In this document: positions 3,917-63,045 of the stretch, in pieces
Numbering within the stretch: position 1 is the stretch's first letter
How the letters are laid out: each line of letters opens with the position of its first letter
From: an uncultured Clostridia bacterium
GTDB taxonomy: Bacteria; Bacillota; Clostridia; TANB77; CAG-508
Length of the DNA: 64,000 nt
Assembly (NCBI GenBank): GCA_934141445.1
Contig: CAKPCF010000008.1
Span: 99 to 64,098, forward strand
Direction: 5' to 3'
The notes under the pieces: model-generated
Database searches by the model: none
Told to the model about the DNA's origin: nothing
The model's input: the letters and a program-made list of their open reading frames with translations, nothing else
Program-made: the position numbers and the translations under genes

Positions 3917-3977
3917 AAATTCAACGAACAGAAAAAAGGCAAAACACGCTATGTTCTATAATACAGGGGGTAGAAAA

Positions 3978-7007: not shown

Positions 7008-7095
7008 TAAATTGCTTACACAATATTTTAAAACATATATTATAAAATTGAATATGTAAAAATGTAAAAAAAGATATAAAAGATTTGGAGGTATT

Positions 7096-17300: not shown

Positions 17301-18149
17301 GCAGAAATAAGTACAGAAGCTGGAAAAGCAAATCCAGATTACAGAGATGTACAAATAGTATTCCAAGTTTCTGAAACAAACTTATCAAAAGATACAACTA
17401 AAAAAGAAGATAGACAAATAATAAATACAGCAGAAATTACAGATGATGAAGACAAAGATGGAAATCCAGTAGATGATATTGATTCTACACCAGGAAACAA
17501 TAAAGATGGTGAAGATGATATTGATAAAGAAAAAGTATATGTAAAATATTTCGACTTAGCATTAAGAAAAGATTTAGTAAAAATAATAATTACTGAAGAT
17601 GGTCAAACAAAAGAAATAAATGTTGATGATCCAGATAAACTAATGAAAGTTGAAATAAACAGAAAGAAAATAGATTCTACAGTAGTTAAGTTTGTATACA
17701 AAATAACAATTACAAATGAAGGCGAAATAGAAGGCTATGCTAAAGAGATTAAAGACTATATTCCAGATGGTTTAAAATTTGTTCAAGAAGATAATAAATC
17801 TTGGTCACAAGTTTCAGATAAAGTAATAGTTACAAGTGAACTTGCAAATACTTTATTAAAACCAGGTGAAAGTGCTTCTGTAAATGTGACTTTACAATGG
17901 GAAAATGCAGAAGACAACATGGGACAAAAAGTAAATACAGCTGAAATCAGTAAAGATTATAATGAACATGGTTCAAAAGATATAGATTCAACTCCAGACA
18001 ATAAAGTTGCAGGAGAAGATGATATAGATACAGCACCAGTAATATTAAGTATTTCAACTGGTTCAGAACAACCATATATAGTATTACCAACAGCAGTAAT
18101 TACTATATTAGCAACAGGTGTAGTTTTAATCAAAAAATATGTTTTATAA
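14316..18149 (+). CDS. Surface adhesin: signal peptide, thioester-domain (TQXA-type) head, four repeat modules, C-terminal TM anchor
   Basis: RBS AAGGAAGG. Signal peptide ...SEVLAAS. Cys95 lies in AMYCLNAE (TGT 14598-14600) and Gln195 in VVQQWAMWYF (14898-14900), matching the [YFL]C-hydrophobic-[DNE] and TQxA-hydrophobic-W thioester signatures. The protein ends ...IVLPTAVITILATGVVLIKKYVL. Confidence 0.85.
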   Translation: MLKSKVKKLLAALCIVTIILPYTSEVLAASLTHETEKALIETSRLHEGGEESSGTLSGDYASEYDTNPYTYRIKDTIIFKLMQSGDVNFEDAMYCLNAEKSFPGQESLEYENKGDFKDATNSSVQALGLSTEDYKALVWLVNNIYLRKQNPEYKDEFLAKAFADKIEEEKNNIPPTTVDLIKSRLTDDDIEVVQQWAMWYFTNRSVEKYASFGSVLITGLDVETMQEVSGSYLDVTGSAIRQEYATTLYNYLVKSAIEGKEEATVTYPSIAVTNTDIKSDVDGKFYKVGPFKVNSGTAPASAYTIKLTDGEKELSTDKYSILIEGEDEFTTKKVNEIFDKNYYIYLPIENNEVTRVQLNLNYNKYETKASLWETNDSRYQPIVLITKENTPVEEKVFKDVEEKTADLALKKYIISVNGEEVRRSNNTNANQPLVDARDLVSGGTDAKYYAEKSPVEVSVGDKVVFEIRVYNEGQIEGKATQIVDYLPEGLTLTENSEINNRYGWTESANKRVASTTILSNVTIPAFNVEENIITSTSVQIECTISKDLNSGKVLTNVAEITADDITDRDSTPGSIKQEDINTETYTGNKDNKQDLTDKNYNYKGIEDDDDFEKLVVKGGTFDLALKKFISRVNDKATSGREPVVDVKPLKDGLKNATYTGSKTPLTVKKGDIVLYTIRVYNEGTNSGYAEEVADYLPEGLGFLVNHTVNIDNYWAIPTDGKTIKLSDIENGTANLSKDDFTGITDLKDVEIVTGKNVKLTSTKLKSNASDTKNLINGFDPENGTELDYRDIQVACIVLADKVENNNCRNIAEIVKHSNEDREDVTDRDSTPDTVKPDNYPGNDKNQDDNDYEDLTMEEPKIFDLALQKFITALNGNQITNRVPTVTKNSDGTLRYSHSSEALSVANNDLITYTIRVYNEGEQDGYAKEIGDDIPSGLVYLPDNETNKKYGWKLYDKNGEETTDINQAVSVKTDYLSKAKSEARKEDNLLKAYDKNAEISTEAGKANPDYRDVQIVFQVSETNLSKDTTKKEDRQIINTAEITDDEDKDGNPVDDIDSTPGNNKDGEDDIDKEKVYVKYFDLALRKDLVKIIITEDGQTKEINVDDPDKLMKVEINRKKIDSTVVKFVYKITITNEGEIEGYAKEIKDYIPDGLKFVQEDNKSWSQVSDKVIVTSELANTLLKPGESASVNVTLQWENAEDNMGQKVNTAEISKDYNEHGSKDIDSTPDNKVAGEDDIDTAPVILSISTGSEQPYIVLPTAVITILATGVVLIKKYVL
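15531..17996 (+). repeat. Four tandem protein-repeat modules inside the adhesin gene
   Basis: Modules open with DLAL(K/Q/R)K at aa 406, 622, 863 and 1080. They close with N-x-AEI...D-x-DSTP at aa 567-572, 826-831, 1054-1059 and 1222-1227. Shared core is Y(T/K)I(R/T)(V/I)(Y/T)NEG..GYA.E..DY(L/I)P.GL. DUF11/Cna-B-like by pattern. Confidence 0.7.
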
Positions 18150-27500: not shown

Positions 27501-29511
27501 AGAAACTTTTATACCACAAAATGAAAGCTTTAAAGTCAATAATGTAAAAATTAGAAATACAGCAAACAAATCTAGGAATTTGAAATTGTTAATATATATA
27601 AAACCAGTTTTAGGTGAAGATGAAATTTTTACTAATTCTGATATAGAAGTTAATAAAAAAGAAAATGTAATTATAGCAAAAAATATTTTGAGAGATGAAA
27701 TTTACGATAAAACATTTTTTATCACTAGTGATTTAAAAATAAAAAGTTTTACAGGAAATAAAGATATATTTTTAGGAACTAATGGTTTGAAAAATCCTAG
27801 AGCTTTATATGAAAAGCTAGATGAAAAAAATGGACTTGGAAAAAATTCATGTATTGCTCTAGAATTTGAAATAATGCTAAATGCTTATGAAAATAAAGAA
27901 TTTACAATTATTTTAGGTGAAGAAAAAGAAGAAAATATTATACAAAGTACAAATAGTTTCTTAAGCAAAACAGATAGAGAAAAAGCTTTAGATGAAGTTA
28001 AACAGAATTGGAATAATATAATTCAAACATTAACTGTAAATACTCCATCTGAAAGCATAAATTTACTAATAAATGGTTGGTTAATATATCAAACATTATC
28101 TAGTAGAATATATGGTAGAACAGGTTTTTATCAGTCTGGAGGAGCTTTTGGATTTAGAGACCAATTACAAGATTCTTTAGGAATGAAGTTGATTGATATA
28201 AACATTTTAAAAGAACAAATTGTAAATTGTGCTGGTCATCAATTTATAGAAGGAGATGTACTTCATTGGTGGCATAGTGATACCAAAAGAGGAATAAGGA
28301 CAAGGTTTTCAGATGATTTATTATGGCTTGTTTATGCGACTTTGGAATATATAGAATTTACAAATGATAATTCTATATTAGATGTAGAAGTTGAATATCT
28401 ATCTGGAGAAGAATTAAAAGATGATGAATTTGAAGTTTATAATATTTTTTATAATAGTGAAATAAAAGAAAATATTTATTCACATTGTAATAGAGCTATA
28501 GAAAAAGTTATTGCTAGAGGAATAGAACCTTTTCCAAAGATAGGAACCGGCGACTGGAATGATGGCTTTAGTGAAGTGGGTTCTAAAGGAAAAGGACAAA
28601 GTATATGGCTTGGATTCTTCTTATATGATATTTTGAATAGATGGAACTTAATTTGTACTTTGAAAAATGATGAAGAAAGAGCTAAAAGATATATTGAAAT
28701 AAAAGAAAAGTTGAAAAAATCTCTAAACACTGAGGCATGGGATGGAAGATGGTATAAAAGAGCTATAACAGATGATGGACAAGTGATAGGAAGTATGAAT
28801 TCAGAAGAAGCTAAAATTGACAGTTTAAGTCAGAGTTGGGCTGTAATATCTAATGCTGGTGATAATGATAAAAAATTTATTGCATTAGAGTCAGTAAAAA
28901 ATAATCTAGTAGATTATGAAAATCAATTGATAAAACTTTTTGACCCTCCTTTTGAAAAAGGAAATATCAAACCCGGATATATTCGTGGATATAAACCAGG
29001 TGTAAGAGAAAATGGAGGTCAATATACTCACGCTGCAATTTGGTTTATTATGGCTGAAGCTTTACTTGGATTTGGAGATGAAGCAGTTAAATTATTGGAA
29101 CTAATCAATCCAATAAATCATTCAAATAATCTTGAGAAAGCACAAAAATATAAACTGGAACCATATAGTATTGCAGCAGATGTGTATTCAAACAGAGATT
29201 TAGTTGGAAGAGGTGGATGGAGTTTATATACAGGTTCTAGTAGTTGGTATTATAAAGTAACAATTGAAAATATATTGGGACTAAAATTGAAAAATGGATA
29301 TCTTTATATAGAGCCTTGTATATCAAAAGATTGGAAAGAGTATGAAATTCGATACAAGTATAAAACAAGTATTTATCAGATAAAAGTGAAAAATTTAAAT
29401 GGTAAAAATACTGGTGTATCTAAATTTATATTAAATGGAGAAGAAATAAAAGAAAAAAGAGTAATGTTACAAGATGACGGAAAAATTTATGCAATTGACA
29501 TTTTTATGTAA
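21538..29511 (+). CDS. Giant cyclic beta-1,2-glucan synthase-like protein (GT domain + TM blocks + GH94 phosphorylase-like domain)
   Basis: 2657 aa. RBS AAGGAG. IITLDSDTNL and HRWVRGDWQ (glycosyltransferase D,D / RW-type motifs). Hydrophobic blocks. C-terminal GH94-type motifs GGAFGFRDQLQD, GTGDWNDG and ENGGQYTHAA. Confidence 0.85.
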   Translation: MKNYKELSISGTLLDNVQLEKYMEKIASEHNVCNYSDADTYPLQTLKNKYHIILETYNLLSKHIKMGIKIHSAGEWILDNFYIIEENVKAIQKKLTIKRYKQMPGISSGKYQGFARCYVLASEIVAFTDSKIDSENVNFCLKAYQKKKLLSMQEIWDLNVFLKLALISQISEMCEKIYLSQIQKLKVENIIKKIIEKQEDNEYKIGYKIKVNDSEPKYPFIEYMSYKLKEYGKEAVEYQKILEKEVAKLGMTVSEVIQKEHFQIANIKITIGNGIKSLKEIGHINFGELFSFTNATEEILNLDPAKVYQNMDEESKNFYREKISKLSKKSKISEVYIAERIIELAKRYENKKDLEEKRKSHIGYYLVDDGLYELKEKLEIKSKRKTINITNLYISSLTFIPIYFCFCLGITIYNFYKNIWLSIFFAIILYVPISEICTKLFNYVLSKCKKPEVIPKMNYEDGLPEEAATFVVIPTILKSKEKVAEMLKKLEVYYLANKLENVYFALLGDCSEEKSQSMNFDDEVVSEGEKIVEQLNAKYKKNDFPRFHFLYRNRVWNQNENSYIGWERKRGLLVTFNEYILKNIDDNFRVNTIEKNKEKMPKIKYIITLDSDTNLIMNSVSKLVGAMDHILNQPIIKKQKVVKGYGIMQPRIGLDLEIAQKTYFVELFSMQGGIDLYSNAISDIYQDYFKEGIFTGKGIYNLKVYDDILKNEIPENTVLSHDLLEGNYLRCGLLTDVTLLDGYPLKYVPYIKRNHRWVRGDWQIFKWLFSDKLNEISKFKIYDNLRRSLVNVIAFLGIILGTICLNSFGKSLIWISVISLIVSYCLDILNIIIFKESYIEGEIYADKKYSKDIGNVKKSIIRLILQISFLPYEAIENLDAIIRSLYRMKKKSKLLEWVTAEDGEKQSKNDLKSIYKEMFVNVIFGVLFLFNKYTCIFAILWLIGPAIAWYISLNRESKRKISYENEEYLKDIAKRTWGFFETYITPENHYLMIDNYQEDREKAIVNRTSSTNIGLSLIAVISAYDLEFISFDRAKKYIEDIIGTINNLAKWNGHLYNWYDTRTLAPLIPRYISTVDSGNYVGYLYILKEFLIENKEKGEFDFLIKNVENLINDVDFSVLYSKENKLFSIGFNLEENKLTDSYYDFLASEARQASLIAIAKRDVPSKHWNALSRTLTSLKGYKGLISWSGTAFEYLMPNINLKNYKGSLIDESSKFAVMCQIEYAKRLNVPWGISESAYGLKDLYNNYQYKAFGIPWLGLKRGLENDIVISPYSTFLALDEANELAIKNAKELEKIGAYQEFGFYESIDFTKSRMKKNQKYELVKTYMAHHQALILLSINNYLNDEILKQRFNRNAEIEAVDILLQERMPINMILTKEYKEKIENIKLLNENAYNERIIQRHHPVYRNIGVISNGDYRVIVDDLGNSCSEFRKNLIYKYKPTDEGKQGIFFYIKNVKTKDIVNVYENSTVIFAPDKISYVKNEGKLKLSTEIILDPNKPLEIRNIEIENIGSTEEIYELVSEFEPILSPKMQEYSHPAFNKLFLQIEKSGEVFYITRKNRLGEEDIYLGTTLYTNNEQIVDTEYEIDKEKYYGRNNIDIPDMLKENKKFSNEMKETTDLILAIKKIFKILPGEKIKFTMLVMPSLNKNELKDEMKKLLSSQEISRIIDVAKVRSEEELQFLQIRRKELALYQKILDYIFLSAPNYKMSQGKKYKKDYLWRHGISGDNPIISVKLRKMEEVNGLKQILKAYEYFRAKSTFVDIVIIDEEDNIYEKYVLNSIEELISEKQMQYLKNINGGIFIIESNPNNKDEIETIILKSKLIIDLGKTDLESYVEKIVNRREKSYKKSRSNNVKKNTTEILPLQKEDLLYFNGYGGFTQDGKEYHIYTNKQNKTPFAWSHILANKFFGTLVTDNFSGYTWSKNSRLNRLTAWGNKPISNVPSEIWYVVENDMMWTINSGVNPNENYYYISYGFGYAKFKNTNNELVQEIETFIPQNESFKVNNVKIRNTANKSRNLKLLIYIKPVLGEDEIFTNSDIEVNKKENVIIAKNILRDEIYDKTFFITSDLKIKSFTGNKDIFLGTNGLKNPRALYEKLDEKNGLGKNSCIALEFEIMLNAYENKEFTIILGEEKEENIIQSTNSFLSKTDREKALDEVKQNWNNIIQTLTVNTPSESINLLINGWLIYQTLSSRIYGRTGFYQSGGAFGFRDQLQDSLGMKLIDINILKEQIVNCAGHQFIEGDVLHWWHSDTKRGIRTRFSDDLLWLVYATLEYIEFTNDNSILDVEVEYLSGEELKDDEFEVYNIFYNSEIKENIYSHCNRAIEKVIARGIEPFPKIGTGDWNDGFSEVGSKGKGQSIWLGFFLYDILNRWNLICTLKNDEERAKRYIEIKEKLKKSLNTEAWDGRWYKRAITDDGQVIGSMNSEEAKIDSLSQSWAVISNAGDNDKKFIALESVKNNLVDYENQLIKLFDPPFEKGNIKPGYIRGYKPGVRENGGQYTHAAIWFIMAEALLGFGDEAVKLLELINPINHSNNLEKAQKYKLEPYSIAADVYSNRDLVGRGGWSLYTGSSSWYYKVTIENILGLKLKNGYLYIEPCISKDWKEYEIRYKYKTSIYQIKVKNLNGKNTGVSKFILNGEEIKEKRVMLQDDGKIYAIDIFM

Positions 29512-53018: not shown

Positions 53019-53600
53019 ATGAAAGAAAATGAAGAAATTAAAATAGGTTTAAAATTTGCAATTATAATAATTATTATTGGAGTAATGGCAGGAATATTTT
53101 TTAAAATTTACAAATTAAATGGTGTTAAGAATTCAAATGATATTATGGCGAAACAAGAAAATACAACTGGGGGAAACAATATATTAAATACGGAAGATAT
53201 AGAAAATAAAGAAAATACAAAAGATAATGAAAATAAAGAAAATAGGGAAGATACAAATGATAAACAAATTCAAATAACAGATGAAATCTTAAAAGGTGAT
53301 TGGAAATTTGAAAAAGTAACAGATAAAAATGGCAATGAAATTAGTCCAATGACTATATTTGGTTCATTAGGTATTACAGGTGATTTTACATTCTATGATA
53401 ATAAAAAATTTACTAACAACATTACAGGTGGTAGATCTTCTGAATTTATAGATGATGGAATTTATACAATAAAAAATAATACTACAATAGAATTAAAATA
53501 TGATGATGGAAGAAACGGCGAATTAACTTATGATGTTGAAAATGAATTTTTAATAGATAATGAAAATGACTATATATTATATATGTCAAAGAGAACCTAA
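53019..53600 (+). CDS. Membrane-anchored hypothetical protein
   Basis: RBS AGAGGG. TM (FAIIIIIIGVMAGIFF). ENKEN repeats. Beta-rich C-terminal domain. Confidence 0.7.
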   Translation: MKENEEIKIGLKFAIIIIIIGVMAGIFFKIYKLNGVKNSNDIMAKQENTTGGNNILNTEDIENKENTKDNENKENREDTNDKQIQITDEILKGDWKFEKVTDKNGNEISPMTIFGSLGITGDFTFYDNKKFTNNITGGRSSEFIDDGIYTIKNNTTIELKYDDGRNGELTYDVENEFLIDNENDYILYMSKRT

Positions 53601-54566: not shown

Positions 54567-54656
54567 TAAATAGCAAAACAAAAAAGCTTGATATTTCAAG
54601 CTTTTTTTTGTGGTAGCGAAGATGTGATTTGAACACATGACCTGCCGGGTATGAAC
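54567..54656. repeat. attL: 90-nt direct repeat (displaced tRNA-Met 3' end plus its terminator)
   Basis: Matches 62926-63014 except for one loop base (TATT vs TAAT) and T8G vs T7A. Similarity stops at ...GGGTATGAAC|A (left) vs |C (right). Confidence 0.85.
54611..54656 (-). pseudogene. Orphan 3' fragment (46 nt) of tRNA-Met left by prophage insertion
   Basis: Identical to 62969-63014. It covers the anticodon-stem 3' side through CCA and lacks the 5' half. Confidence 0.8.
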
Positions 54657-54703
54657 AATGAAATAGATTTGAAAATCTAATTTAATTGATTTGCGTGTCG
54701 AGT

Positions 54704-54731
54704 AGGTGCAAAGCACCTAGTGGAACGAAAC
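54704..54731. repeat. Conserved hairpin motif, copy A (just inside attL)
   Basis: AGGTGCaaaGCACCTAgtGGAacGAAaC. Matches 59800-59827 at 21/28 positions. The core is the palindrome AGGTGC-N3-GCACCT. Confidence 0.6.
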
Positions 54732-54743
54732 GAGATAGCAAAG

Positions 54744-55475
54744 TTAAATTTTTCTATAAGTTTCTGCAAGTATTCTTGAAAATGTTTTATCTAAAAATTC
54801 TAAACTATATATGTTACTTGTTTTTATATGAATTAGTTCTAATTGAGCTTCATCAAAAATTTCATCTAAGAAAGCATCTCTTTCTTGTCTTTTTTTCTTA
54901 TAATGCGTTTTGTCATCTAATTCTATACAAAAAAGTATTTTACCTAAATTATTACATATTGTAAAATCAATACTTTTTCTATTTATTTTATTTTGAAGAG
55001 AATTAAATCTTGAACTCCAATGGTTTGACTCATTAACTTCTAATATTTCGTAAAGAATTACTTGGGCAAATACAGTACATTTGTATTTAATAGCAATTTC
55101 TTTTAAAACTTTGTAAAATTTTGTTTCATTTTCTGTCATTAGATATTCTTTTCTTTTATATCTAGGTACTACTCTATATTGTAAAACATTGTCAGCATTA
55201 TATATATTTCTGACAACTCTTGTTTCTGTTTGGATTAGTTTATTGTATTTATCAATATTTTCTTGTTCTAATTTTTTGTCATTTTCTTCTTGTTTTTTCT
55301 TTAAATTTTCTTCTTTAGATTTGAAGTACAATTTTTGTTTTAATAGAGCATCTTGTCTTTTTTGATATTCTTTTATTTTCTTTATTATCCATTTGCCTAC
55401 ATAATAATAAAATAATATTTCAATAAGGCAAGCTATTAGTGCTCCAACATATTTAATATAATTCATATTTTTCAC
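54744..55475 (-). CDS. Membrane-anchored DUF2726-like (nuclease-fold) protein, prophage accessory gene
   Basis: GTG start overlaps the repressor stop by 4 nt. TM, coiled coil, then a DUF2726-type pattern (TENETKFYKVL...VFAQV...INRKSIDFTICN...LFCIELDDKTH...RDAFLDE). Confidence 0.7.
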   Translation of the reverse strand: MKNMNYIKYVGALIACLIEILFYYYVGKWIIKKIKEYQKRQDALLKQKLYFKSKEENLKKKQEENDKKLEQENIDKYNKLIQTETRVVRNIYNADNVLQYRVVPRYKRKEYLMTENETKFYKVLKEIAIKYKCTVFAQVILYEILEVNESNHWSSRFNSLQNKINRKSIDFTICNNLGKILFCIELDDKTHYKKKRQERDAFLDEIFDEAQLELIHIKTSNIYSLEFLDKTFSRILAETYRKI

Positions 55476-55684
55476 TTTCTTTTGTATGGATTTGGATTAT
55501 CTGTCAATTCAACAATGTAGTCAATTGATGTTTTATAAATTATTGCTAATTTTTTTAAACTTTCTATTGGTATTTGTCTTTTTTCACTTTCATATTGCTG
55601 ATATGTATTTTGCTTACAATTTAGCAATTCAGCAATTTGATTTTGCGTATAGTCGTTATCTTCTCTTAAATCTTTTAATCTCAT
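55472..55684 (-). CDS. XRE-family repressor (prophage)
   Basis: 70 aa. HTH_3 segment LKDLREDNDYTQNQIAELLNCKQNTYQQYESEKRQIPIESLKKLA. Divergent from the structural operon. Confidence 0.85.
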   Translation of the reverse strand: MRLKDLREDNDYTQNQIAELLNCKQNTYQQYESEKRQIPIESLKKLAIIYKTSIDYIVELTDNPNPYKRK

Positions 55685-55711
55685 ATTATCGCCTCACCAT
55701 TATTATAAAAT

Positions 55712-55783
55712 ATCTCTAATTGAGATATTGACAATTATCTCATAATGTGATAATAATAAATACGATAAATCTCATTTCGAGAT
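55712..55783. promoter_or_regulatory. Divergent control region: two ATCTC-N5-GAGAT operators flanking a rightward promoter
   Basis: ATCTCTAATTGAGAT (55712-55726). TTGACA (55728-55733), then TGTGATAAT/TAATAA around 55746-55756. ATCTCATTTCGAGAT (55769-55783) sits directly before RBS AGGAGA. Confidence 0.6.
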
Positions 55784-55794
55784 AGGAGAAACAA

Positions 55795-55944
55795 ATGAAA
55801 GAAGATTTTGTAAATGTAAAAAGAGATTGTTTCGCATATAAAAGAGGCTATGAACCCGAGCCACCTCATTGTGAAGCTTTAAACAAGTTATATTGTGAAA
55901 CAGAAGAATGTAAATTTTATAAGAAAAGAGGAAAAACAAAATGA
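55795..55944 (+). CDS. Small Cys4 protein (49 aa; not in ORF track)
   Basis: RBS AGGAGA. MKEDFVNVKRDCFAYKRGYEPEPPHCEALNKLYCETEECKFYKKRGKTK. ATGA overlap with the next ORF. Confidence 0.5.
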   Translation: MKEDFVNVKRDCFAYKRGYEPEPPHCEALNKLYCETEECKFYKKRGKTK

Positions 55945-56201
55945 AATTTGTTGAAGATTGTAGATTTTTAAAATTAGAGATTGCTAAAACAAAGAAAGAC
56001 AATAAGGAATATGGTTTGTTATCTGTACTTGATTCAGATAATAACTCACATAAATTTTATATTTTTGATGATTTGAAAAACAGATTCTTGCAAGCTGGCT
56101 TAAAAGAATTTGAACCTTTTAAAATTGTTTTTGAAACATATGAATCTGATAAGGCGTGGGCAGTAAGGATTTTAGACTTTGGAAGAAGAGACAACAAATA
56201 A
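55941..56201 (+). CDS. 86-aa protein, size and position of a phage ssDNA-binding (g5p-like) protein
   Basis: Translationally coupled. About 87 aa, like Ff gVp. Beta-rich. The call rests on position only. Confidence 0.4.
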   Translation: MKFVEDCRFLKLEIAKTKKDNKEYGLLSVLDSDNNSHKFYIFDDLKNRFLQAGLKEFEPFKIVFETYESDKAWAVRILDFGRRDNK

Positions 56202-56373
56202 TACAACTTTAGATACGCCAGCATATAATCCAGAAATTGCTGAAAGATTAGATACAATAATTCAATATGAAAATGCTCATTACTCAATATCTTTATTTAC
56301 TATTGCAGTAATTTCAGCAATATTTGTAATCTATCTTTTATATAAGTTTATAACTCATTTTTTTGAGTTTTAA
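56179..56373 (+). CDS. Small protein with C-terminal TM (minor-coat-like)
   Basis: TTG start. 64 aa. Hydrophobic stretch SLFTIAVISAIFVIYLLYKFI. Confidence 0.4.
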   Translation: MEEETTNNTTLDTPAYNPEIAERLDTIIQYENAHYSISLFTIAVISAIFVIYLLYKFITHFFEF

Positions 56374-56467
56374 TAAATAGTTTTTGAACTTGTACTATAA
56401 CAAGCTCCTCTTTGGTTTTATCGATAAAATACACAAAAGAAAAAATTGAAGAAAGGAGATACAAAAG

Positions 56468-56626
56468 ATGAACGAAGTATTATATACAGTAACTGCAGAG
56501 ACAGTAGCACCAATCACAAGTGCTATTTCATCTGGTTTAACTACTTTAATGCCAATAGGAATTGGTATTATGGCAACATTTATTGGTATAGGAATTATAA
56601 AAAGAGTAATTTACTCATTCTTATAA
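56468..56626 (+). CDS. Major coat protein candidate (52 aa, Pf3-like, no signal peptide; not in ORF track)
   Basis: RBS AAAGGAGA 7 nt upstream. MNEVLYTVTAETVAPITSAISSGLTTLMPIGIGIMATFIGIGIIKRVIYSFL has an acidic N-terminus, a Gly/Ile-rich TM and a basic C-terminus. The listed ORF 56446..56748 is in another frame. Confidence 0.65.
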   Translation: MNEVLYTVTAETVAPITSAISSGLTTLMPIGIGIMATFIGIGIIKRVIYSFL

Positions 56627-56744
56627 TTCATAAAACTTTTTCCAATAAGAACATCCAATTGAATATTTTTACAGAAGATAACAGAATTGCTCTTAAATTT
56701 TTGTTATCTTCTTTTACTTTAAAGAAAGGAGAAAATAAATACAA

Positions 56745-58045
56745 ATGAAAACAAAAAATAAAATACTAATAATATTAGCAAGTTTTATTTTATTACTGTT
56801 ACTATTTAATAGCAAAGCTTTTGCAGCAGAAGAAACAACAGAATTGCCAGAATTACCAGAAACTACACAAGAGTTTTTAAAAGATAAGTATTATATTATT
56901 GTAGATAGGTCAGATTTTATTTTTTATTATATTTGTGAACAACCTTTAATATATACAGCTGATTGTTATGACTCAGATATTTTAAATGGTTTTTTATACC
57001 CTTCAGCATCATATTGTAAAAGCTGGAATTTTAGCTATAAGGTTGCTACTTCTACATTTTTAGGCTTGGAAAATGATTTGCCAAAAGAACATACAACTAC
57101 TTCTCAATATAATGTAATTGATGATATTGGTTATGTTAATGTTAATACTGGAAAATATAATATTTTACAAGCTAATTATGATGTTTATAATTTTAAATTT
57201 AAAAAGGATAGTTCTAATAGATATATTTTAGACACAAATACTAAAAAATTGGTTTTTCAAGCACCTCCTCAGGGACTGACTCAGGTTCTGGAGGAGGGAT
57301 ATCAAACAGCACAGGTAATAACAACACAGTCGATAACTCAACAACTGGGGGTTCTAGTTCCAGTGGGGATAGTGATAATGGCAACGATAATACTGGTTTT
57401 TTTAATAAAATCATTTCATTTTTGGAAACCATAGTAAATGGAATTAAAAATTTAGTTAATTTTCTAAATCCACTTAATTGGATACCAAATTTAGTTGAAA
57501 ATATAGGCAAATTCTTTAATGGCGATGTAGATGAAGGTACAAAAGGTGTATTTGGTTTTTTTAATGATATTTTAACAAGGTTTTCAAGTATTATTGATTG
57601 GCTTGCAAATTTTATGCAATTCATTTTTGATTGTGCATTTCATTTAGTTGTACCAACTGATAGTCAATGGGCTGAAATAAAAGATAGTTTTTCAAATTTA
57701 GGTACAACAATAACGAATCATATTCCATTTTGGAGTTTTATACAAAATACAATTACAGATGTTCAAAATGAAGTATTTCAACCAGAAGATTTCTTAATAA
57801 TAAAAATGCCTTCTTTTAAATTCTTTGGAGTTGAAACAGGAGAAATTGAGTGTCTTAATGTAATGCAAGCTTATGAACCATATAGAATACAAATAAGAGG
57901 TTTACTTGCTTTAGTTGTTTATGCGTGTGGTTTCGTTTATATTGTTAAAGTTATTACTAGTTATGGAGTAACACAACATGCCAATGCAATTATTGCAAAT
58001 GTAAATGCTGTTGAACAATCTAAAAAGGCAGGTGGTAAAAAGTGA
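56745..58045 (+). CDS. g3p-like adsorption protein; two overlapping ORFs joined only by a -1 shift at A6 (57243-57248)
   Basis: ORF 56745..57434 has a signal peptide (...NSKAFA|AEE) and an N-terminal domain. The -1 frame is open from 57245 and encodes a Ser/Gly/Asn/Asp linker (SSTSSGTDSGSGGGISNSTGNNN...GGSSSSGDSDNGNDN). It continues into ORF 57422..58045, which has a C-terminal TM (LLALVVYACGFVYIVKVI). The fused product would be about 433 aa. Confidence 0.55.
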
Positions 58046-58293
58046 TAATTTATTGGATATTGCAATTTTTTGATACTATTATTACATTTGTTTTTTCAAT
58101 TGTTCCAGTAATAGAAACACCAGCTTGGCTTGTTTCAAATTTACCAAAGATTTTTACTACTGCTTTTGGTTTTAATCAATATTTACCACTTACTGAAGCT
58201 TTTGCCGTTGCTGTATTTTTAATAAGTTTTACAATGCAATATAAGATTTTTAAAATCTTATTAAATAAATTTGGAATTGATTTAACAAAATAA
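58042..58293 (+). CDS. Small polytopic membrane protein (g6p-like position)
   Basis: GTG start follows AGGTGG and overlaps the upstream TGA. 83 aa with 2-3 TM segments. Confidence 0.55.
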   Translation: MIIYWILQFFDTIITFVFSIVPVIETPAWLVSNLPKIFTTAFGFNQYLPLTEAFAVAVFLISFTMQYKIFKILLNKFGIDLTK

Positions 58294-58300
58294 ATTGCTT

Positions 58301-58329
58301 GCAACAACGGACTTTATGTCCGTTGCTGC
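58301..58329 (+). other. GC-rich hairpin upstream of the Zot-like gene
   Basis: GCAACAACGGAC pairs with GTCCGTTGCTGC (11/12 bp, 5-nt loop) in otherwise AT-rich DNA. Confidence 0.6.
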
Positions 58330-58349
58330 AATTATTTGAAAGGAACAAA

Positions 58350-59324
58350 ATGTTAAATATATTTTTTACTTATACAAAAATCTTGTTTTGGGTTTTCTTG
58401 GGATTGCTTGTTATTTTAGATGTAGCAAAAAAAGGATTTATACATAATTTTATTTTTAAATTTATTGAAGCTTTTCCATTTTTTATAAAAGATGTGTTTA
58501 CTACTAATTGGAAAGAGTTTAGAGGATATGGCTTTCATATTTATTGTGGCTTAGGTGGTTCTGGAAAAACTATTTCAATAGTAAATTATCTTTTAGCAAT
58601 GAAACAGAAATATCCAAAACTTAAAGTCTATACAAACTTTTACTTTCCAGCTGGAGATGGAATTATAAAAGATTGGAAAGATTTAATTGAAACAACAAAT
58701 TATGAAACTGTTGAAATTACAAAAGAAGAATATGAGAAATTAAAGAAATATAAGCCTAATAAAGAAGGAAAAGAAAAAGAATATTGGGCAGAAAATATAG
58801 AATTTGTTGATGAAGAAACAGGCGAAATAATAGATACAGAAAAGTATTATAGAATTGTAAATCATGGTGTCATTTTTGGTTTTGATGAAATACATATGAC
58901 ATTAAATTCAGATAAATGGAAAGATAGACCAGATGATTTACTTTATTACATTTCACAACAAAGAAAGATGCATAAACAAATAGTTGCTAGCTCACAAGTT
59001 TTTACTAGAATTGATAAAATTTTAAGAGAACAAACAAACTATGTTGTAGAGTGTAGTTCGTTTTTAATGGGTAGATTGGTTGTAAATCGTTTTTACCATA
59101 CTGAGGAATATATTGCAAATGATGAAAAGAAAGATAAAGGAACTAAAAAGAGAAAAGTAAAAGCTTATAGAATATTTATTGCAAGAGATTTTATAAGAAA
59201 TTCTTATGATACAGAAGAAATAATGAAAGATTTAAAAGTTGCAAAATCGAAAGATAAGCAACTTGTAGATTTGATAAAAGAATATAGTAAAAAGGAGATT
59301 TCATCAAATGAGTATTTTTCTTAG
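58350..59324 (+). CDS. Zot/pI-like P-loop assembly ATPase
   Basis: ATG at 58350 follows AAAGGAAC. N-terminal TM (ILFWVFLGLLVILDV). Walker A GLGGSGKT. Walker B VIFGFDEIH. Confidence 0.75.
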   Translation: MLNIFFTYTKILFWVFLGLLVILDVAKKGFIHNFIFKFIEAFPFFIKDVFTTNWKEFRGYGFHIYCGLGGSGKTISIVNYLLAMKQKYPKLKVYTNFYFPAGDGIIKDWKDLIETTNYETVEITKEEYEKLKKYKPNKEGKEKEYWAENIEFVDEETGEIIDTEKYYRIVNHGVIFGFDEIHMTLNSDKWKDRPDDLLYYISQQRKMHKQIVASSQVFTRIDKILREQTNYVVECSSFLMGRLVVNRFYHTEEYIANDEKKDKGTKKRKVKAYRIFIARDFIRNSYDTEEIMKDLKVAKSKDKQLVDLIKEYSKKEISSNEYFS

Positions 59325-59484
59325 TTTAGCATATTTTATATCACTTATTTTTATTCTTATAGGAATAGAGTTAATTGATAGAAGATTACAAAATCAAATT
59401 GATACTTTAAGAAGTTATATTGTAGATATTAGATTAGAACAATTGAAAGATGAAGAAAGGATAGAAGAATTATGGAAAAAATAG
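59308..59484 (+). CDS. Small TM protein (58 aa; not in ORF track)
   Basis: RBS AAGGAGA. MSIFLSLAYFISLIFILIGIELIDRRL.... Overlaps the Zot-like gene end. Confidence 0.4.
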   Translation: MSIFLSLAYFISLIFILIGIELIDRRLQNQIDTLRSYIVDIRLEQLKDEERIEELWKK

Positions 59485-59624
59485 TTTGGTTTATATTTGG
59501 TAGTTTAAGTGCTACTTTAGTAGATATGATACAGTATAAAAAGATGAAAGATAGTTATGAAGCAGAAAAAGAGAAAATGCAGAAGGATATAAAAATATTG
59601 AAAGGAAGTAAGACAAATGGATAA
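59472..59624 (+). CDS. Small TM protein (50 aa; not in ORF track)
   Basis: MEKIVWFIFGSLSATLVDMIQYKKMK.... Overlaps its neighbours, consistent with coupled translation. Confidence 0.35.
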   Translation: MEKIVWFIFGSLSATLVDMIQYKKMKDSYEAEKEKMQKDIKILKGSKTNG

Positions 59625-59766
59625 TGAAGAAAAATATATAACATTTAGACTTTCAATAAAAGATTTAAAAACATTGGTATCAATGCTGGAAATGGGCAAA
59701 TATAGGTATAATTTAGGACAAAGAAATATATATCAGAACTTTGAAGAGATTTTAAAGAAGTTATAA
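59617..59766 (+). CDS. Small soluble protein (49 aa; not in ORF track)
   Basis: RBS GGAAG. MDNEEKYITFRLSIKDLKTLVSMLEMGKYRYNLGQRNIYQNFEEILKKL. Confidence 0.35.
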   Translation: MDNEEKYITFRLSIKDLKTLVSMLEMGKYRYNLGQRNIYQNFEEILKKL

Positions 59767-59799
59767 AAATTTGTTCTTAAAAGATGTGCAAATTTTTGC

Positions 59800-59827
59800 A
59801 GGTGCGCAGCACCTAACGGAGTGAAGC
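59800..59827. repeat. Conserved hairpin motif, copy B (phage intergenic region)
   Basis: AGGTGCgcaGCACCTAacGGAgtGAAgC. Preceded by the palindrome TGCAAATTTTTGCA. Confidence 0.6.
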
Positions 59828-59855
59828 AAAAATGCACAAAAGTACATTGAAATAT

Positions 59856-60459
59856 TGCACTTTATTTTGGCGTTTAGGCGTAGGTGTGTCTTTTGAGCAA
59901 TCTATGAAGTGTATATTAAAATTTATTACGAAGATATGAGCAAAAAAGAGAGTTTAGCATTCGCCAAACTCTGTAAAAAATGCGAAGTGTTTATAATCTT
60001 CTATTATAAAGTCAACTTCATCTTTAGTAATAAATTTTAATAGTTCTTCATTTGATTTTAGTTTTTCTAATTCTTTAATTCTTTTATTATATCTTTTTAT
60101 TGCTTTTCTATCTTCTTTATTCATATAAATCACCTTCCTTTGAGCTGATTTTACATATTTTTCGATAAAATCAAATAATAGCTTAATAGGTCTATGACCT
60201 TGATTTTATAAAAGAAAAATATGTTACTAGTAAATTTAAGGAAGGGGATTGAATAAAGAAATATAGTTAATAATAAAAGAAAGAATTTGTAATACAATGT
60301 TAAAATTTATTACTAAAAGAGAAGTTCTTATTATTGTATTATAAATTATAAAGAATTAAATTACAGTTTGAGAGCTAAACATTCTTTTTAAGCGAAATAG
60401 ATTTGTAATAAATTATATTATTAAAATATTGCGAAGGCTAAACGCCAAAATGTAGTGCA
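59856..60459. repeat. 24-nt imperfect inverted repeat pair flanking a ~0.56-kb segment
   Basis: TGCACTTTATTTTGGCGTTTAGGC (59856-59879) matches the reverse complement of GGCTAAACGCCAAAATGTAGTGCA (60436-60459) at 21/24 positions. Inside are three copies of (A)TTAAAATTTATTAC: 59915-59929 (+), 60027-60041 (-) and 60300-60313 (+). Confidence 0.65.
59954..60124 (-). CDS. Small charged protein (56 aa; not in ORF track), antisense to the phage structural genes
   Basis: RBS GGAAGGTGA. MNKEDRKAIKRYNKRIKELEKLKSNEELLKFITKDEVDFIIEDYKHFAFFTEFGEC. Confidence 0.4.
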   Translation of the reverse strand: MNKEDRKAIKRYNKRIKELEKLKSNEELLKFITKDEVDFIIEDYKHFAFFTEFGEC

Positions 60460-60472
60460 GAAAGGAAATTTT

Positions 60473-60640
60473 ATGATTACTTATTGTAAGTTTTGTAATT
60501 CTACTTCTCTTTTTATAGAGATTATTGGAACAAGAAAAGGTTTGTATTGTGCTGATTGCGGTAAATGGCTTAAATGGATAACAAAAGAAGAATTTCAAAT
60601 TGCAAAATATAGAAATTATCGTATTTTTGATTGGAGATAA
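60473..60640 (+). CDS. Zinc-ribbon protein (55 aa)
   Basis: ATG at 60473 follows AAAGGAAA. CKFC...CADCG. Confidence 0.5.
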   Translation: MITYCKFCNSTSLFIEIIGTRKGLYCADCGKWLKWITKEEFQIAKYRNYRIFDWR

Positions 60641-60648
60641 GAAAATAA

Positions 60649-60903
60649 ATGACGAGAGATGAATTCATAAAAAAAATTAGAAAAAATGTTCCAGAAAATT
60701 CTGAAATAGTTGGCTGTGATATTTTTTACTCTTCTTTTATTGGTTTGTGCTTAAATGATTATTCTTTATGCGAACCGTATTATAAAGATTCAATAAGAAG
60801 ATTGTTAACAATTAGATTTTGTTCAGAAGATACAGAAAAACCATATACAAATTTATTAGCAGAAAGTAATAACGACTGCCAACAAATTACGGAGGGTTCT
60901 TAG
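60649..60903 (+). CDS. Hypothetical protein (84 aa)
   Basis: ORF with tight spacing to the upstream gene. No motif. Confidence 0.5.
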   Translation: MTRDEFIKKIRKNVPENSEIVGCDIFYSSFIGLCLNDYSLCEPYYKDSIRRLLTIRFCSEDTEKPYTNLLAESNNDCQQITEGS

Positions 60904-60915
60904 TAACACCCTCCG
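60890..60915 (+). other. GC-rich hairpin upstream of rep
   Basis: CGGAGGGT (60890-60897) pairs with ACCCTCCG (60908-60915). Followed by the palindrome TCCCATACATGGGA (60920-60933). Confidence 0.6.
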
Positions 60916-60960
60916 AGTGTCCCATACATGGGAATAATTTTATACATAAGAGGTATAAAA

Positions 60961-61989
60961 ATGATAGATACAATAAAAATTTATACAATGATTTCTAAAG
61001 ATATTTACTATACGATAAAAGAAAATTCTATTGTAAAAACATCATATCAAACAAAAACTGGAGAAGTTTTTTATAATATAGTAAATGATAAATTGGAAGG
61101 TTCTTACAGTTCTTCTCTTTCTGTTAGAGTGGGAGAAGGAGGAAAATACAAATTCATAAATCAATACTATTTAGAAATAGAAGGTAGTTTTCACAAGATA
61201 ATTAGGGGCTATAATACACATAATGGTTTTTACAATTTAGTTTCTATCACAAGAACACTAATTGATATGTTAGAGAAACACTATAATGTAAAACTACCAA
61301 CTTTTGAGCATTGGTTTCTACAAAGAGTAGATATTACAAAAGTATTTGATTTAGAGAACAATGATAATGTTCGAGATTATATAAATAACTTAAGCTTTTG
61401 CAGATACCCACGAAGAAAAATCAAACACTATAATGATGAAAGCATTTATATGTCGGGAACTACAACTACATTAAAGATATATAATAAGATGTTAGAATTT
61501 AGAAAACACGATATGAAAAAACTCAATGAAAATGGATTTCCAGTATTAAAATTCTTGCCAGTAATACAGGGCTTTATTAGATTTGAGTGTGAAATAAAGA
61601 AGAAAAAATTAGAACAAGAATATAAAAAGAAATACATAAGAGTAAAAGAAATAAATTATAGAGAGTTAGAAAAAATATGGAGAGATGAGTTTATGAAAAT
61701 GATAAGATTATTTGAAAAAGATATGGAAGTTGTTAGAAAAAAGCAAGATGTTGAGAGAAGATTAAAAACACTATATAAGGAAACACAAGCAAATTTATTA
61801 TATAATTTCTATTTAGCTGTTATGGTTGATGGACTTGAAAATATAAAAAATAGAACATCTAAAAGTACATATTATAGAAATATCAAATTGCTAAAAGATG
61901 CTAACATTGATTTTTCACAAAGCACCAACATTAACTTTGATGAACACTTTATTGATTTCGACCCGTTTTCCTATCCAGAGGTAATTTAG
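60961..61989 (+). CDS. Rolling-circle replication initiator, filamentous-phage gpII/CRI type
   Basis: ATG at 60961 follows AAGAGG. MIDTIKIY N-terminus, LEIEGSFHKIIRGYNTHNG and WFLQRVDITKVF resemble the G2P/Phage_CRI pattern. Confidence 0.7.
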   Translation: MIDTIKIYTMISKDIYYTIKENSIVKTSYQTKTGEVFYNIVNDKLEGSYSSSLSVRVGEGGKYKFINQYYLEIEGSFHKIIRGYNTHNGFYNLVSITRTLIDMLEKHYNVKLPTFEHWFLQRVDITKVFDLENNDNVRDYINNLSFCRYPRRKIKHYNDESIYMSGTTTTLKIYNKMLEFRKHDMKKLNENGFPVLKFLPVIQGFIRFECEIKKKKLEQEYKKKYIRVKEINYRELEKIWRDEFMKMIRLFEKDMEVVRKKQDVERRLKTLYKETQANLLYNFYLAVMVDGLENIKNRTSKSTYYRNIKLLKDANIDFSQSTNINFDEHFIDFDPFSYPEVI

Positions 61990-62921
61990 TGAAGCTTTCA
62001 GAAGTAGTAGACATATTTATTGAAGACCAATACATATTAGGAAATACGGAAAAAACTATTCATCATAATAAAACACATCTATATTTTTTCATCAAATGGT
62101 GTACGGATATTGATATAAAAGAATTGACTTTTGAAACCTATAAAAACTATATAATTTATTTAAGAAATAAAAAGACAAAATATAATAAACTTTTAGCAAG
62201 CAGAACAATTTTTACTTATGCAGAAATATTGAAACAATTTATACATTTTTGTGAAAAGAGGGGATATATTGTGGATAGTATATATGAAAAGATACAATTA
62301 CCAAGATATAAAAAGAAAGTAATTAGAATTTTAAATGAAAATGAAATTAAGGCAATTTTAACTTTCTTTGATGATTCTACATTTATTGGAGCAAGAAACA
62401 ACTTAATCATTAGTCTAATGCTTGACTGTGGACTTCGATTAAGTGAAGTTACCAACTTGAAATTTACAGATTTTCAAATTGAAAGAAAACTTATTTTGGT
62501 AAATGGAAAAGGACAAAAACAGAGATTTGTTCCATTTTCTCCAGCAACATATAATTACTTTCAAAAATATATGTCTTTCTTTGAAAATAAATTTGTACCA
62601 ACGCAACAATTTTTTGTCGACATTGTTGGTTTTCCAATAACTAATGATGCAATAAAATCATTTTTGCAGAGAATAAGAAAGAAACTGTCAATTCAGGATT
62701 TGCACCCACATTTATTAAGACATACTTTTGCTACAATGTACATCTTAAATGGAGGAGACCCACTTAATTTGCAAATTATTTTAGGTCATACAACTTTAAC
62801 AATGACTCAACACTATGTACATTTAGCAGCACAAATGAGAATTGCAGAACAAATGCAATATAGTCCACTTTCAAATATATCACTTGCTGATACAAGTAGA
62901 AACCTATCGTGTCGCAATTAG
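61989..62921 (+). CDS. Tyrosine recombinase/integrase (XerC/D-like)
   Basis: GTG overlaps the rep stop. GLRLSEV (Arg), HPHLLRHTFAT (HxxR) and LGHTTLTMTQHYVH (His...Tyr). Adjacent to attR. Confidence 0.9.
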   Translation: MKLSEVVDIFIEDQYILGNTEKTIHHNKTHLYFFIKWCTDIDIKELTFETYKNYIIYLRNKKTKYNKLLASRTIFTYAEILKQFIHFCEKRGYIVDSIYEKIQLPRYKKKVIRILNENEIKAILTFFDDSTFIGARNNLIISLMLDCGLRLSEVTNLKFTDFQIERKLILVNGKGQKQRFVPFSPATYNYFQKYMSFFENKFVPTQQFFVDIVGFPITNDAIKSFLQRIRKKLSIQDLHPHLLRHTFATMYILNGGDPLNLQIILGHTTLTMTQHYVHLAAQMRIAEQMQYSPLSNISLADTSRNLSCRN

Positions 62922-62925
62922 AAAC

Positions 62926-63014
62926 TAAATAGCAAAACAAAAAAGCTTGATAATTCAAGCTTTTTTTATGGTAGCGAAGATGTGATTTGAACACATGACC
63001 TGCCGGGTATGAAC
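62926..63014. repeat. attR: 89-nt direct repeat overlapping the intact tRNA-Met
   Basis: Partner of 54567-54656. Confidence 0.85.
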
Positions 63015-63045
63015 CGGATGCTCTAGCCAACTGAGCTACTTCGCC
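62969..63045 (-). tRNA. tRNA-Met (anticodon CAT), elongator type
   Basis: The reverse complement GGCGAAGTAGCTCAGTTGGCTAGAGCATCCGGTTCATACCCGGCAGGTCATGTGTTCAAATCACATCTTCGCTACCA folds as a cloverleaf. Loop TTCATAC. Encoded CCA. G1-U72 wobble. It lacks the initiator features. Ile2 (lysidine) identity is not strictly excluded. Confidence 0.85.

Follow-up and report, generated by a model that had tools for sequence, protein, structure and literature searches.

A probable temperate inovirus integrated at tRNA-Met in an uncultured Clostridia bacterium of the human gut

The window analysed here is a stretch of 64,000 nucleotides (nt) of contig CAKPCF010000008.1, from the assembly of an uncultured Clostridia bacterium (GCA_934141445.1). 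It contains a segment of 8,358 base pairs (bp), measured as the sequence added with respect to the single-copy site, which lies between two direct repeats at a tRNA-Met gene and carries approximately 18 open reading frames (ORFs). The rightward genes encode a small Cys-rich protein, a predicted oligonucleotide/oligosaccharide-binding (OB)-fold protein, several small membrane proteins, including a candidate major coat protein, and a Zot/pI-type ATPase, and they end with a rolling-circle replication initiator (Rep) and a tyrosine integrase adjacent to an intact tRNA gene (Table 1). We consider it very probable that this segment is a complete temperate inovirus (order Tubulavirales), probably still functional, integrated in the chromosome of an uncultured human-gut Clostridia. 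An earlier reading of the same DNA, made from the sequence alone and referred to below as the sequence-only reading, had proposed a filamentous-type prophage that encodes a tyrosine integrase, occupies a tRNA-Met gene and is devoid of a secretin; this core proposal is supported, with a probable Firmicute as host, and every ORF that it had listed was found in place. For the comparison of conservation, we used 13 related loci from species-representative genomes (Clostridia metagenome-assembled genomes, MAGs) retrieved by a scan with an ATPase pattern. Protein families were searched in Pfam and PHROG, and transmembrane segments and signal peptides were assigned by topology prediction.

Table 1. 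Features of the predicted prophage and its attachment (att) sites; positions are those of the window, and lengths of proteins are in amino acids (aa).
Feature	Position	Strand	Evidence or remarks
attL	54567..54656	.	host (attB) repeat variant: tRNA-Met terminator hairpin and displaced tRNA 3' 46 nt (54611-54656)
DUF2726 accessory protein, 243 aa, N-terminal transmembrane segment	54744..55475	-	Pfam DUF2726 7e-24
XRE/Cro-CI-type helix-turn-helix (HTH) regulator, 70 aa	55472..55684	-	Pfam HTH_3 5.3e-13; PHROG transcriptional regulator 3e-18
Cys-rich basic protein, 49 aa, first gene of the rightward operon	55795..55944	+	phrog_27214 (unknown function) 6.6e-5
Predicted OB-fold protein, 86 aa	55941..56201	+	AlphaFold pLDDT 90.6
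64-aa protein, acidic N-terminus, single C-terminal transmembrane segment	56179..56373	+	topology; kept in L001, L002, L007
52-aa protein, acidic N-terminal part, one transmembrane segment, K-R near C-terminus	56468..56626	+	topology; phrog_18198 2.7e-5
229-aa protein, signal peptide and C-terminal transmembrane anchor	56745..57434	+	topology
207-aa protein, one transmembrane segment near C-terminus	57422..58045	+	kept in 12/13 loci
83-aa polytopic membrane protein	58042..58293	+	kept in 12/13 loci
GC-rich hairpin, ~14 bp, loop TTTAT	58299..58331	+	DNA fold z = -5.86; covariation
Zot/pI-type morphogenesis ATPase, 324 aa	58350..59324	+	transmembrane anchor residues 2-31; Walker A 67-74; Walker B 176-181
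Three overlapping small ORFs, 58, 50 and 49 aa, the first with N-terminal transmembrane segment	59308..59766	+	
Variable accessory segment	59767..60648	.	minus-strand 59-aa ORF (59954-60133) and 55-61-aa zinc-ribbon ORF (60455-60640)
84-aa ORF	60649..60903	+	kept in close relative L031; stop codon inside origin hairpin
Candidate (+)-strand origin	60891..60934	+	nick-box hairpin GGAGGGT-TCTTAGTAAC-ACCCTCC, then covarying palindrome TCCCA-TACA-TGGGA
Rolling-circle replication initiator, gpII/Phage_CRI family, 342 aa	60961..61989	+	PF05144 3.6e-16; phrog_702 2e-30
Tyrosine integrase, 310 aa	61989..62921	+	PF00589 4.1e-33; phrog_1 7e-50
attR	62926..63014	.	left part is the phage (attP) repeat variant
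tRNA-Met(CAT), intact, reconstituted	62969..63045	-	ARAGORN, Rfam

The limits of the element are set by the direct repeats, of 90 nt on the left and 89 nt on the right, which are two substitutions and one indel apart. The repeat is composed of 46 nt of the 3' part of the tRNA followed by 43 nt of downstream sequence that include the tRNA terminator hairpin, and all three differences between attL and attR fall outside the tRNA part. The tRNA-Met(CAT) at the right end is intact (65.4 bits in Rfam), its 3' 46 nt being identical to the copy displaced in attL. The block of ~8.3 kb between repeats at this tRNA, as described in the sequence-only reading, is thus confirmed by the alignment of the repeats, by ARAGORN and by Rfam. 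An E-value scan of the element with Rfam returned nothing besides the tRNA. The hairpin of the repeat is flanked by an A-run on one side and by a T-run on the other, and at attR it may therefore serve as a terminator for both int on the plus strand and the tRNA gene on the minus strand.

The most direct evidence of integration comes from the empty site. The exact 265-aa protein encoded just to the left of attL was looked up among human-gut metagenome contigs, and it is present on many of them. Several carry the same prophage (L014, L016, L020-L022), and the copies from other gut samples are 100% identical to that of the window. By contrast, in L017 and in four similar places, the gene of the 265-aa protein, the tRNA-Met gene and a gene of the tRNA-synthetase family (Pfam tRNA-synt_2) directly adjoin one another with no insert. 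Both flanks of L017, a contig from another gut metagenome, match the window at 100% identity (6,566 nt on the left, 986 nt on the right); the insertion is therefore precise and recent, and, judging from these alignments, the prophage looks recently mobile. The sequence-only reading had suggested a comparison with relatives lacking the insert, and an empty attB is thereby available in a strain-identical background. A three-way alignment revealed that the empty site of L017 bears exactly the repeat variant of attL, so the attL variant is derived from the host and the attR variant from the phage. Since the three differences distinguish phage from host sequence, strand exchange can be placed inside the identical tRNA part (54611-54656), which ends on the right at the anticodon loop, GGGTATGAAC. 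In other hosts, relatives have repeats of 46-51 nt at tRNA-Met which end at the same anticodon-loop GGGTATGAAC, with T-arm sequences that are specific to each host; L003 (6,530 bp), L031 (7,317 bp) and probably L002 are bounded by tRNA-Met in this manner. The shared end of the repeats and the host-specific T-arms suggest an integrase lineage that targets tRNA-Met, each attP matching its own host.

Three related contigs show further repeats. L002, a MAG contig of 7,181 bp, contains a whole related inovirus, and its ends overlap exactly over 55 nt (1-55 and 7127-7181). This overlap is ambiguous evidence of a circular genome, since it corresponds to the att site, that is, the 3' part of tRNA-Met, and would also collapse if the element were integrated. 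L057, a metagenome contig of 7,608 bp, begins and ends inside rep with an overlap of 171 nt (3-173 and 7435-7605). Its ends are only 89% identical, so its interpretation as a circle is likewise ambiguous; it could be two related inoviruses in tandem, a circular assembly from a mixed population or a chimera. In the related lysogen L031, a direct repeat of 116 nt (3885-4000 and 5410-5525; 95% identical and 1,525 bp apart) abuts attL, which points to either an att remnant or another small island arranged in tandem at this tRNA-Met.

The integrase and Rep are both assigned by clear family matches. The PF00589 match of the integrase covers positions 2-171 of 172 of the profile, and the catalytic residues R150, K174/177, H241-x-x-R244, H267 and Y276 are present, in agreement with the tyrosine integrase expected beside the reconstituted tRNA. 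In L009, the integrase (6545-7491) is split over three frames, reflecting either a decaying prophage or errors of MAG assembly. For the gpII/CRI-type Rep, which the sequence-only reading had likewise predicted, both Pfam and PHROG searches are unequivocal, with 60 bits against PF05144 for a cut-off of 21.7. The start of rep was taken at the ATG preceded by AGAGG, in accordance with gene calls that give 342 aa; the longest ORF begins at 60928.

Directly upstream of rep lies a conserved motif. A 34-nt stretch (60891-60925) is 94-100% identical in seven Rep-bearing loci (L001-L005, L009, L013), and the 23-mer GAGGGTTCTTAGTAACACCCTCC is invariant in all eight aligned Rep-bearing loci, between which Rep itself is 48-84% identical. 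This 23-mer folds into a stem of 7 bp with a loop of 10 nt, followed downstream by a second hairpin with compensatory substitutions in its stem (DNA fold z = -4.27 for the region). The exact 22-mer occurs once in the window, with 0 expected, and it is found in every fetched locus with this Rep family; it is absent from all six related loci without a detected Rep of the family (L006-L008, L010-L012). It was also retrieved in four IMG/VR contigs and 50 metagenome contigs, in 47 of the latter directly upstream of a Rep homologue (50-72% identical), and the ATPase of such collection contigs is often only 23-33% identical. The cleavage site of M13 gpII is GTTCTTTAATAGTGGACTCTTGTTCCAAACTGGAACAACA (bioRxiv 10.1101/2023.12.22.573028). 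The candidate origin of the window reads GTTCTTAGTAACACCCTCCGAGTGTCCCATACATGGGAATAA, its nick-box part with GGAGGGTTCTTAGTAACACCCTCC preceding the palindrome. M13 and the window share the nick box and, after it, a T(T/C)CCA...TGG(A/G)A palindrome, the layout of the core being GTTCTTTAATAGTGGACTC + TTCCAAACTGGAA in M13 and GTTCTTAGTAACACCCTCC + TCCCATACATGGGA in the window. On the basis of these sequence features, 60891-60934 is likely to be the (+) origin and to contain the putative Rep nick site, which by analogy with Ff would fall within TTCTT/AGTAAC.

The region between the ATPase and rep, described in the sequence-only reading as noncoding and rich in hairpins, did not withstand the comparison and is better regarded as a variable insert. 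It holds a minus-strand 59-aa ORF, as well as the zinc-ribbon ORF, for which weak Lar/zinc-ribbon matches were obtained, and its part 59767-60454 folds modestly better than shuffled sequences (z = -1.0 and -2.95). In L031-L033, whose ATPase is 85% identical and which occupy the same chromosomal locus, only 84 nt are present at the position of 59767-60454. This part was therefore rejected as an intergenic origin: it is absent in L031-L033, contains ORFs and has an unremarkable fold.

The start of the ATPase is almost certainly at 58350 and not at 58299, because the database relatives and the gene callers use the former; the first 17 codons of the longer ORF correspond to the DNA hairpin described below. 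The motifs GLGGSGKT (residue 67) and FGFDEIH (residue 176) picked out in the sequence-only reading are present, and Walker A and Walker B are invariant across the family. The homology with Zot then claimed for this protein stands in an indirect form: it does not hold for the window protein in Pfam Zot, and it holds through relatives, structure and the ATPases of inoviruses. The PHROG Zot-like match has an E-value of 2e-4. Among 184 database relatives, 27 were sampled and 12 of these match PF05707 (best 3.7e-8), and relatives at 49-57% identity do match this family; since Pfam Zot is reached by relatives and not by the window protein, the homology is transitive. In tblastn searches of GenBank, the ATPase matches the ATPase/Zot genes of 'Inovirus sp.' and 'bajarodino virus' with E-values down to 1e-13. 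A profile search of the family against PDB sequences returned nothing meaningful. The alignment-based structural model (pLDDT 77.5) has the N-terminal domain of Neisseria Zot (2r2a) as its top PDB match in Foldseek (probability 0.99, E 6e-4), and the top matches in BFVD are Inoviridae Zot models (E 2e-8). All 27 sampled family members possess an N-terminal hydrophobic segment, a Walker A at residues 57-71 and no C-terminal transmembrane segment. Judged from sequence and model, the protein belongs to the pI-like ATPases (Zot, FtsK-HerA superfamily) by which inoviruses are recognised.

A second conserved structured element, the hairpin 58299-58331, sits between the stop codon of the 83-aa gene and the ribosome-binding site of the ATPase. 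L001-L011 and L031 have its equivalent at this position, where L024 and L013 also show a strong hairpin. The apical CGAC-(T/A)TTAT-GTCG is almost unchanged between loci, while the lower stem covaries: across 13 loci, compensatory double changes affect 11 of the 12 pairs and 85% of cells pair, none of these measures being reached by any of 500 shuffles. Among 44-nt windows ordered by stability, the hairpin falls in the top 0-0.8% at every locus of this ATPase clade, and it is absent from loci that share the Rep and origin but have a distant ATPase. From the distribution of the two motifs, it follows that the origin motif travels with Rep and the hairpin with the morphogenesis module. The comparison of G-T and A-C mismatches, which could indicate the folding strand, is uninformative (7 versus 11). 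A role as intrinsic terminator was rejected, as most loci have no T-run after the hairpin and only the copy of the window was flagged, on the minus strand. In the circular inovirus MT135308 from pig faeces (L035, 977-1060), the ATPase gene is immediately preceded by two very stable GC-rich hairpins (z = -5.42), so that structure at such a site may extend beyond the Clostridia clade studied here.

Several roles can be envisaged for the hairpin of the window. It might act as a packaging or assembly signal, or it might control or stabilise the expression of the ATPase; we hold both proposals as tentative, and to the same degree. We consider it rather unlikely that it represents an assembly-initiation or packaging signal specific to a secretin-less exporter with a topology different from that of Ff, which would constitute, together with the N-terminal transmembrane anchor, a distinct assembly design; this proposition fits the shared distribution of the hairpin and the morphogenesis module, as opposed to the Rep and origin. 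A function as minus-strand origin is unlikely.

The genes for the coat, the variable 229-aa protein, the 207-aa protein, the 83-aa protein and the ATPase form a module that is syntenic in the 13 Clostridia MAG loci. The 52-aa protein has no signal peptide and is 62-88% identical across all 13 loci. No similarity was detected between it and the coat of phage B5, nor by tblastn against phages, and it is a candidate major coat protein. The 229-aa protein is hypervariable: where relatives keep the adjacent genes, it retains only 24-28% identity or escapes detection, as expected for a receptor-binding protein, and we propose it as a candidate adsorption protein with a pIII-like role. The signal peptide attributed to it in the sequence-only reading is present; the Gly/Ser linker is not, as no window of 15 residues contains more than four Gly and Ser. 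The same reading had omitted the 207-aa membrane protein, a candidate minor virion or assembly protein whose only PHROG matches are weak, non-credible ones to tape-measure proteins (E 0.005-0.03). The 83-aa protein is a pVI-like candidate by its position, and the 64-aa protein may be a minor virion protein. The 52-, 64- and 58-aa proteins have one hydrophobic segment each, in keeping with short single-transmembrane structural proteins. The 58-aa transmembrane protein, whose gene overlaps the stop codon of the ATPase, was considered as a pXI-like partner and rejected, given that it is confined to near relatives and that other loci have an unrelated soluble protein instead.

Upstream of the coat gene, the 86-aa protein was modelled with the topology b1-b2-b3-a-b4-b5 of a canonical OB-fold, and the top PDB matches of the model in Foldseek are PrgE, the single-stranded DNA (ssDNA)-binding protein of pCF10, together with Rim1, bacterial ssDNA-binding proteins, RPA and LEF-3. 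The protein has no family match in Pfam or PHROG, and the model makes it a candidate ssDNA-binding protein analogous to gpV. The 49-aa Cys-rich protein is kept in L001 and L002. The gene of the 70-aa XRE protein is transcribed divergently from the structural operon, and this protein is likely, from its family, to be the prophage repressor. The small regulatory ORF, the ORF of a size expected for an ssDNA-binding protein, the coat-like protein and the polytopic membrane protein announced by the sequence-only reading thus all have their counterparts, and the absence of capsid, terminase, tail, lysis and secretin genes that it noted agrees with the Pfam and PHROG searches of the element proteins, which returned no match to such families apart from the weak tape-measure ones given above. 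DUF2726 has been assigned to the PD-(D/E)XK nuclease superfamily (PMC3424549). Submitted to PADLOC, the DUF2726 protein and the small ORFs gave no match to a defence system, only generic HTH matches. The DUF2726 protein could be a nuclease acting in superinfection exclusion or as a replication accessory. Homologues of DUF2726 recur beside the gene of Rep or of an HTH repressor in many related inovirus contigs (L027, L029, L031-L033, L037, L043, L045, L054, L059, L064, L066, L070, L074, L080, L084).

The host is likely a monoderm Firmicute. The window has ~27% G+C and encodes NrdDG, PorABC-like subunits and RodA/SpoVE-family, CwlD-like, YkwD spore-family and YycF/WalK-like proteins, in addition to surface proteins with a thioester domain (TED) and DUF11 repeats; all 13 related loci are labelled as Clostridia, Clostridiaceae or Eubacteriales MAGs and come from gut samples.

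We propose the following life cycle. The integrase would recombine attP, which carries the 3' 46 nt of the tRNA and the terminator, with the host tRNA-Met gene. A crossover inside the tRNA part, bounded by the anticodon loop, would leave an intact tRNA at attR and the displaced 3' fragment at attL. During lysogeny, the leftward XRE repressor is expected to silence the rightward operon. Upon induction, by analogy with Ff, the integrase would excise a circle, and the gpII-type Rep would nick the invariant GTTCTTAGTAAC hairpin just upstream of rep, giving rise to rolling-circle synthesis of plus strands that the 86-aa OB-fold protein could coat. The 52-aa coat protein would enter the membrane without a signal peptide. 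Packaging of ssDNA and release of the virion could then be carried out by the Zot/pI-type ATPase and the 83-, 207-, 229- and 64-aa membrane proteins, which would extrude the filament across a single membrane with no need of a secretin.

Several observations weigh against this interpretation, and some of them would fit a cryptic or defective prophage, with recent integration or integrase-mediated loss and no virions, or an element dependent on a helper. Neither IMG/VR nor the metagenome collection contains the pattern of the attP junction, and no circular or episomal form was found among the contigs; in all 23 contigs with the exact ATPase that were read, only the integrated arrangement is seen in the places displayed. 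The coverage of the prophage contig and that of the host-flank contig are alike in one sample (4.07 versus 3.62, from contig names), which gives no sign of extra phage copies in that sample, and some relatives appear to be decaying, as the integrase of L009 in three frames illustrates. A defective prophage is nevertheless difficult to reconcile with the fact that all ~18 ORFs are intact and called identically in several samples, that the structural genes are kept across 13 divergent loci and that the origin motif and the hairpin are both intact. Moreover, the presence or absence of the insert in a 100% identical background, together with copies that are 100% identical, points to recent activity. 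We consider a defective prophage improbable.

It could also be argued that the element is not viral, and that it corresponds to an integrative element of the rolling-circle plasmid type or to a mobilisable island, in which a membrane ATPase of the FtsK/HerA type would serve DNA transfer. The window ATPase has no Pfam Zot (PF05707) match at E ≤ 0.1, its fold also resembles, more weakly, FlaH, RecA-like proteins and packaging ATPases, and the structural proteins have no characterised homologues. Yet the best matches of this ATPase, in sequence as in structure, are inovirus Zot/pI proteins, including those of complete circular genomes of ~4.2-5.0 kb from pig faeces. Rep belongs to the gpII family of filamentous phages and is associated with an Ff-like origin, a highly conserved 52-aa single-transmembrane protein and an OB-fold protein follow an Ff-like order, and Pfam and PHROG searches of the element proteins detected neither a relaxase nor a coupling protein nor any family of conjugation proteins. 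A non-viral element is, in our opinion, very improbable. With respect to the temperate inovirus that we favour, three further reservations concern its parts: the structural matches of the ATPase have low template-modelling scores (0.24-0.42), the coat, adsorption and pVI-like roles are candidate assignments based on size, topology, position and conservation and not on homology with characterised proteins, and the envelope type of the host is deduced from taxonomy labels and a few genes.

To our knowledge, the replication and packaging signals of monoderm inoviruses are essentially undescribed. The element offers two testable cis elements for these viruses, namely an Ff-type candidate Rep nick site, found in dozens of gut inovirus contigs, and a clade-specific hairpin at the ATPase gene. 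As a cleanly delimited and probably mobile inovirus for which attL, attR, an inferred attP and an observed attB are available, it also allows excision assays to be designed, either by PCR or by read mapping. The general picture of inovirus biology is unchanged by this element.

Other genes of the window were observed in passing. At 14316-18149 (+), a surface protein of 1,277 aa combines the TED, DUF11 repeats and a C-terminal transmembrane anchor; it has no LPXTG near the C-terminus and displays an adhesin architecture of the Gram-positive type. At 21538-29511 (+), a protein of 2,657 aa with GH94 catalytic and supersandwich domains and a glucoamylase-like domain has an architecture similar to that of cyclic beta-1,2-glucan synthases or phosphorylases; for a low-GC gut Firmicute this seems unusual. 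The segment 49559-52954 (+), between a PemK-type toxin gene and the prophage, encodes proteins of 978 aa and then 149 aa with no Pfam match; the PemK-family gene, just upstream of that of the 978-aa protein, is annotated in L014 at 15147-15497. Degenerate periodic repeats of 9 and 27 nt (53176-53273) lie inside a 193-aa ORF (53019-53600), whose product is small and membrane-anchored, the repeats encoding a low-complexity stretch rich in Glu, Asn and Lys.

Compared with known systems, the element shares with the Ff phages (M13, f1, fd) the order of the genes for the ssDNA-binding protein, small transmembrane proteins, coat, adsorption protein, pVI-like protein and pI-type ATPase, as well as a gpII/Phage_CRI Rep. 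No sequence similarity is detectable between its structural proteins and those of Ff. It departs from Ff by its tyrosine integrase, its tRNA att site and its lack of a secretin, by the location of rep at the end of the operon and not at the start, and by a coat protein without signal peptide. The pI of Ff has an N-terminal Walker A, with the transmembrane segment and periplasmic domain at the C-terminal side; in the ATPase of the element, the transmembrane anchor is instead N-terminal, and residue 67 begins the Walker A. Among deposited viral genomes, the nearest are those of 'Inovirus sp.' from pig faeces (MT1352xx-MT1353xx), among which MT135308 is annotated as a complete circular genome of 4,976 bp, and of 'bajarodino virus' from rodent faeces. 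Their ATPase/Zot is 26-31% identical over 52-60% of the protein; they differ from the element in size (4.2-8.8 kb), in their distant sequence and in an annotated ATPase without N-terminal transmembrane segment. A megablast of the whole element against GenBank phages gave no match. Among deposited phages, a match to Rep was detected in Lentisphaerae phage WC36-1 alone, a chronic filamentous phage (26% identity over 92% of the protein, E 2e-28); its host phylum is different, and no further shared genes were detected.

Among isolates, a filamentous phage with a Gram-positive host, Propionibacterium phage B5 (Paulinoviridae, Bifilivirus), resembles the element by its small genome, the lack of a secretin and a pVI-like transmembrane protein gene before the ATPase gene. 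The ATPase match is marginal (profile E 5.5e-4 against 10 ORFs; blastp E 0.007), and no other ORF, those of Rep, integrase and coat included, has a match in B5, so membership of the Paulinoviridae is not supported. In addition, B5 has a high G+C content and an ATPase without transmembrane segment, and no stable hairpin precedes the gene of this ATPase.

The inovirus prophages of Enterocloster and Hungatella are closer in habitat and size: they occur in human-gut Clostridia, measure 6.5-8.5 kb and encode a pI homologue and 10-16 other ORFs between direct repeats (PMC10061712). Their secretion has been demonstrated experimentally from gut Enterocloster (Burckhardt et al, 2023; PMC10061712), whereas the element described here is known from sequence alone; tRNA and integrase are not mentioned in the main text of that article. 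Our ATPase-pattern scan of species-representative genomes recovered no Enterocloster locus, and these inoviruses probably carry a different pI lineage. The survey of Roux et al (2019; PMC6813254) lists prophages with att repeats in a tRNA or beside an integrase, 582 of them derived from genomes and 44 from metagenomes; it counts Y-recombinases among the integration genes of inoviruses and links four candidate families with monoderm or wall-less hosts. Its main text does not deal with origin motifs or hairpins. The element has the features by which inoviruses were recognised in that survey, namely a pI-like ATPase, proteins of 30-90 aa with a single transmembrane domain and short genes. The rarity of Gram-positive inoviruses emphasised by the sequence-only reading therefore holds for isolates, which are few, and is overstated otherwise, given the hundreds catalogued (PMC6813254) and the secretion from Enterocloster (PMC10061712). 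Inoviruses of monoderms that encode an integrase and integrate in tRNA genes were thus already catalogued in silico, and secretion from gut Clostridia was shown for another lineage; to these, the present locus adds an observed empty site, an Ff-like origin motif common to many gut inovirus contigs and a clade-specific hairpin upstream of the ATPase gene.

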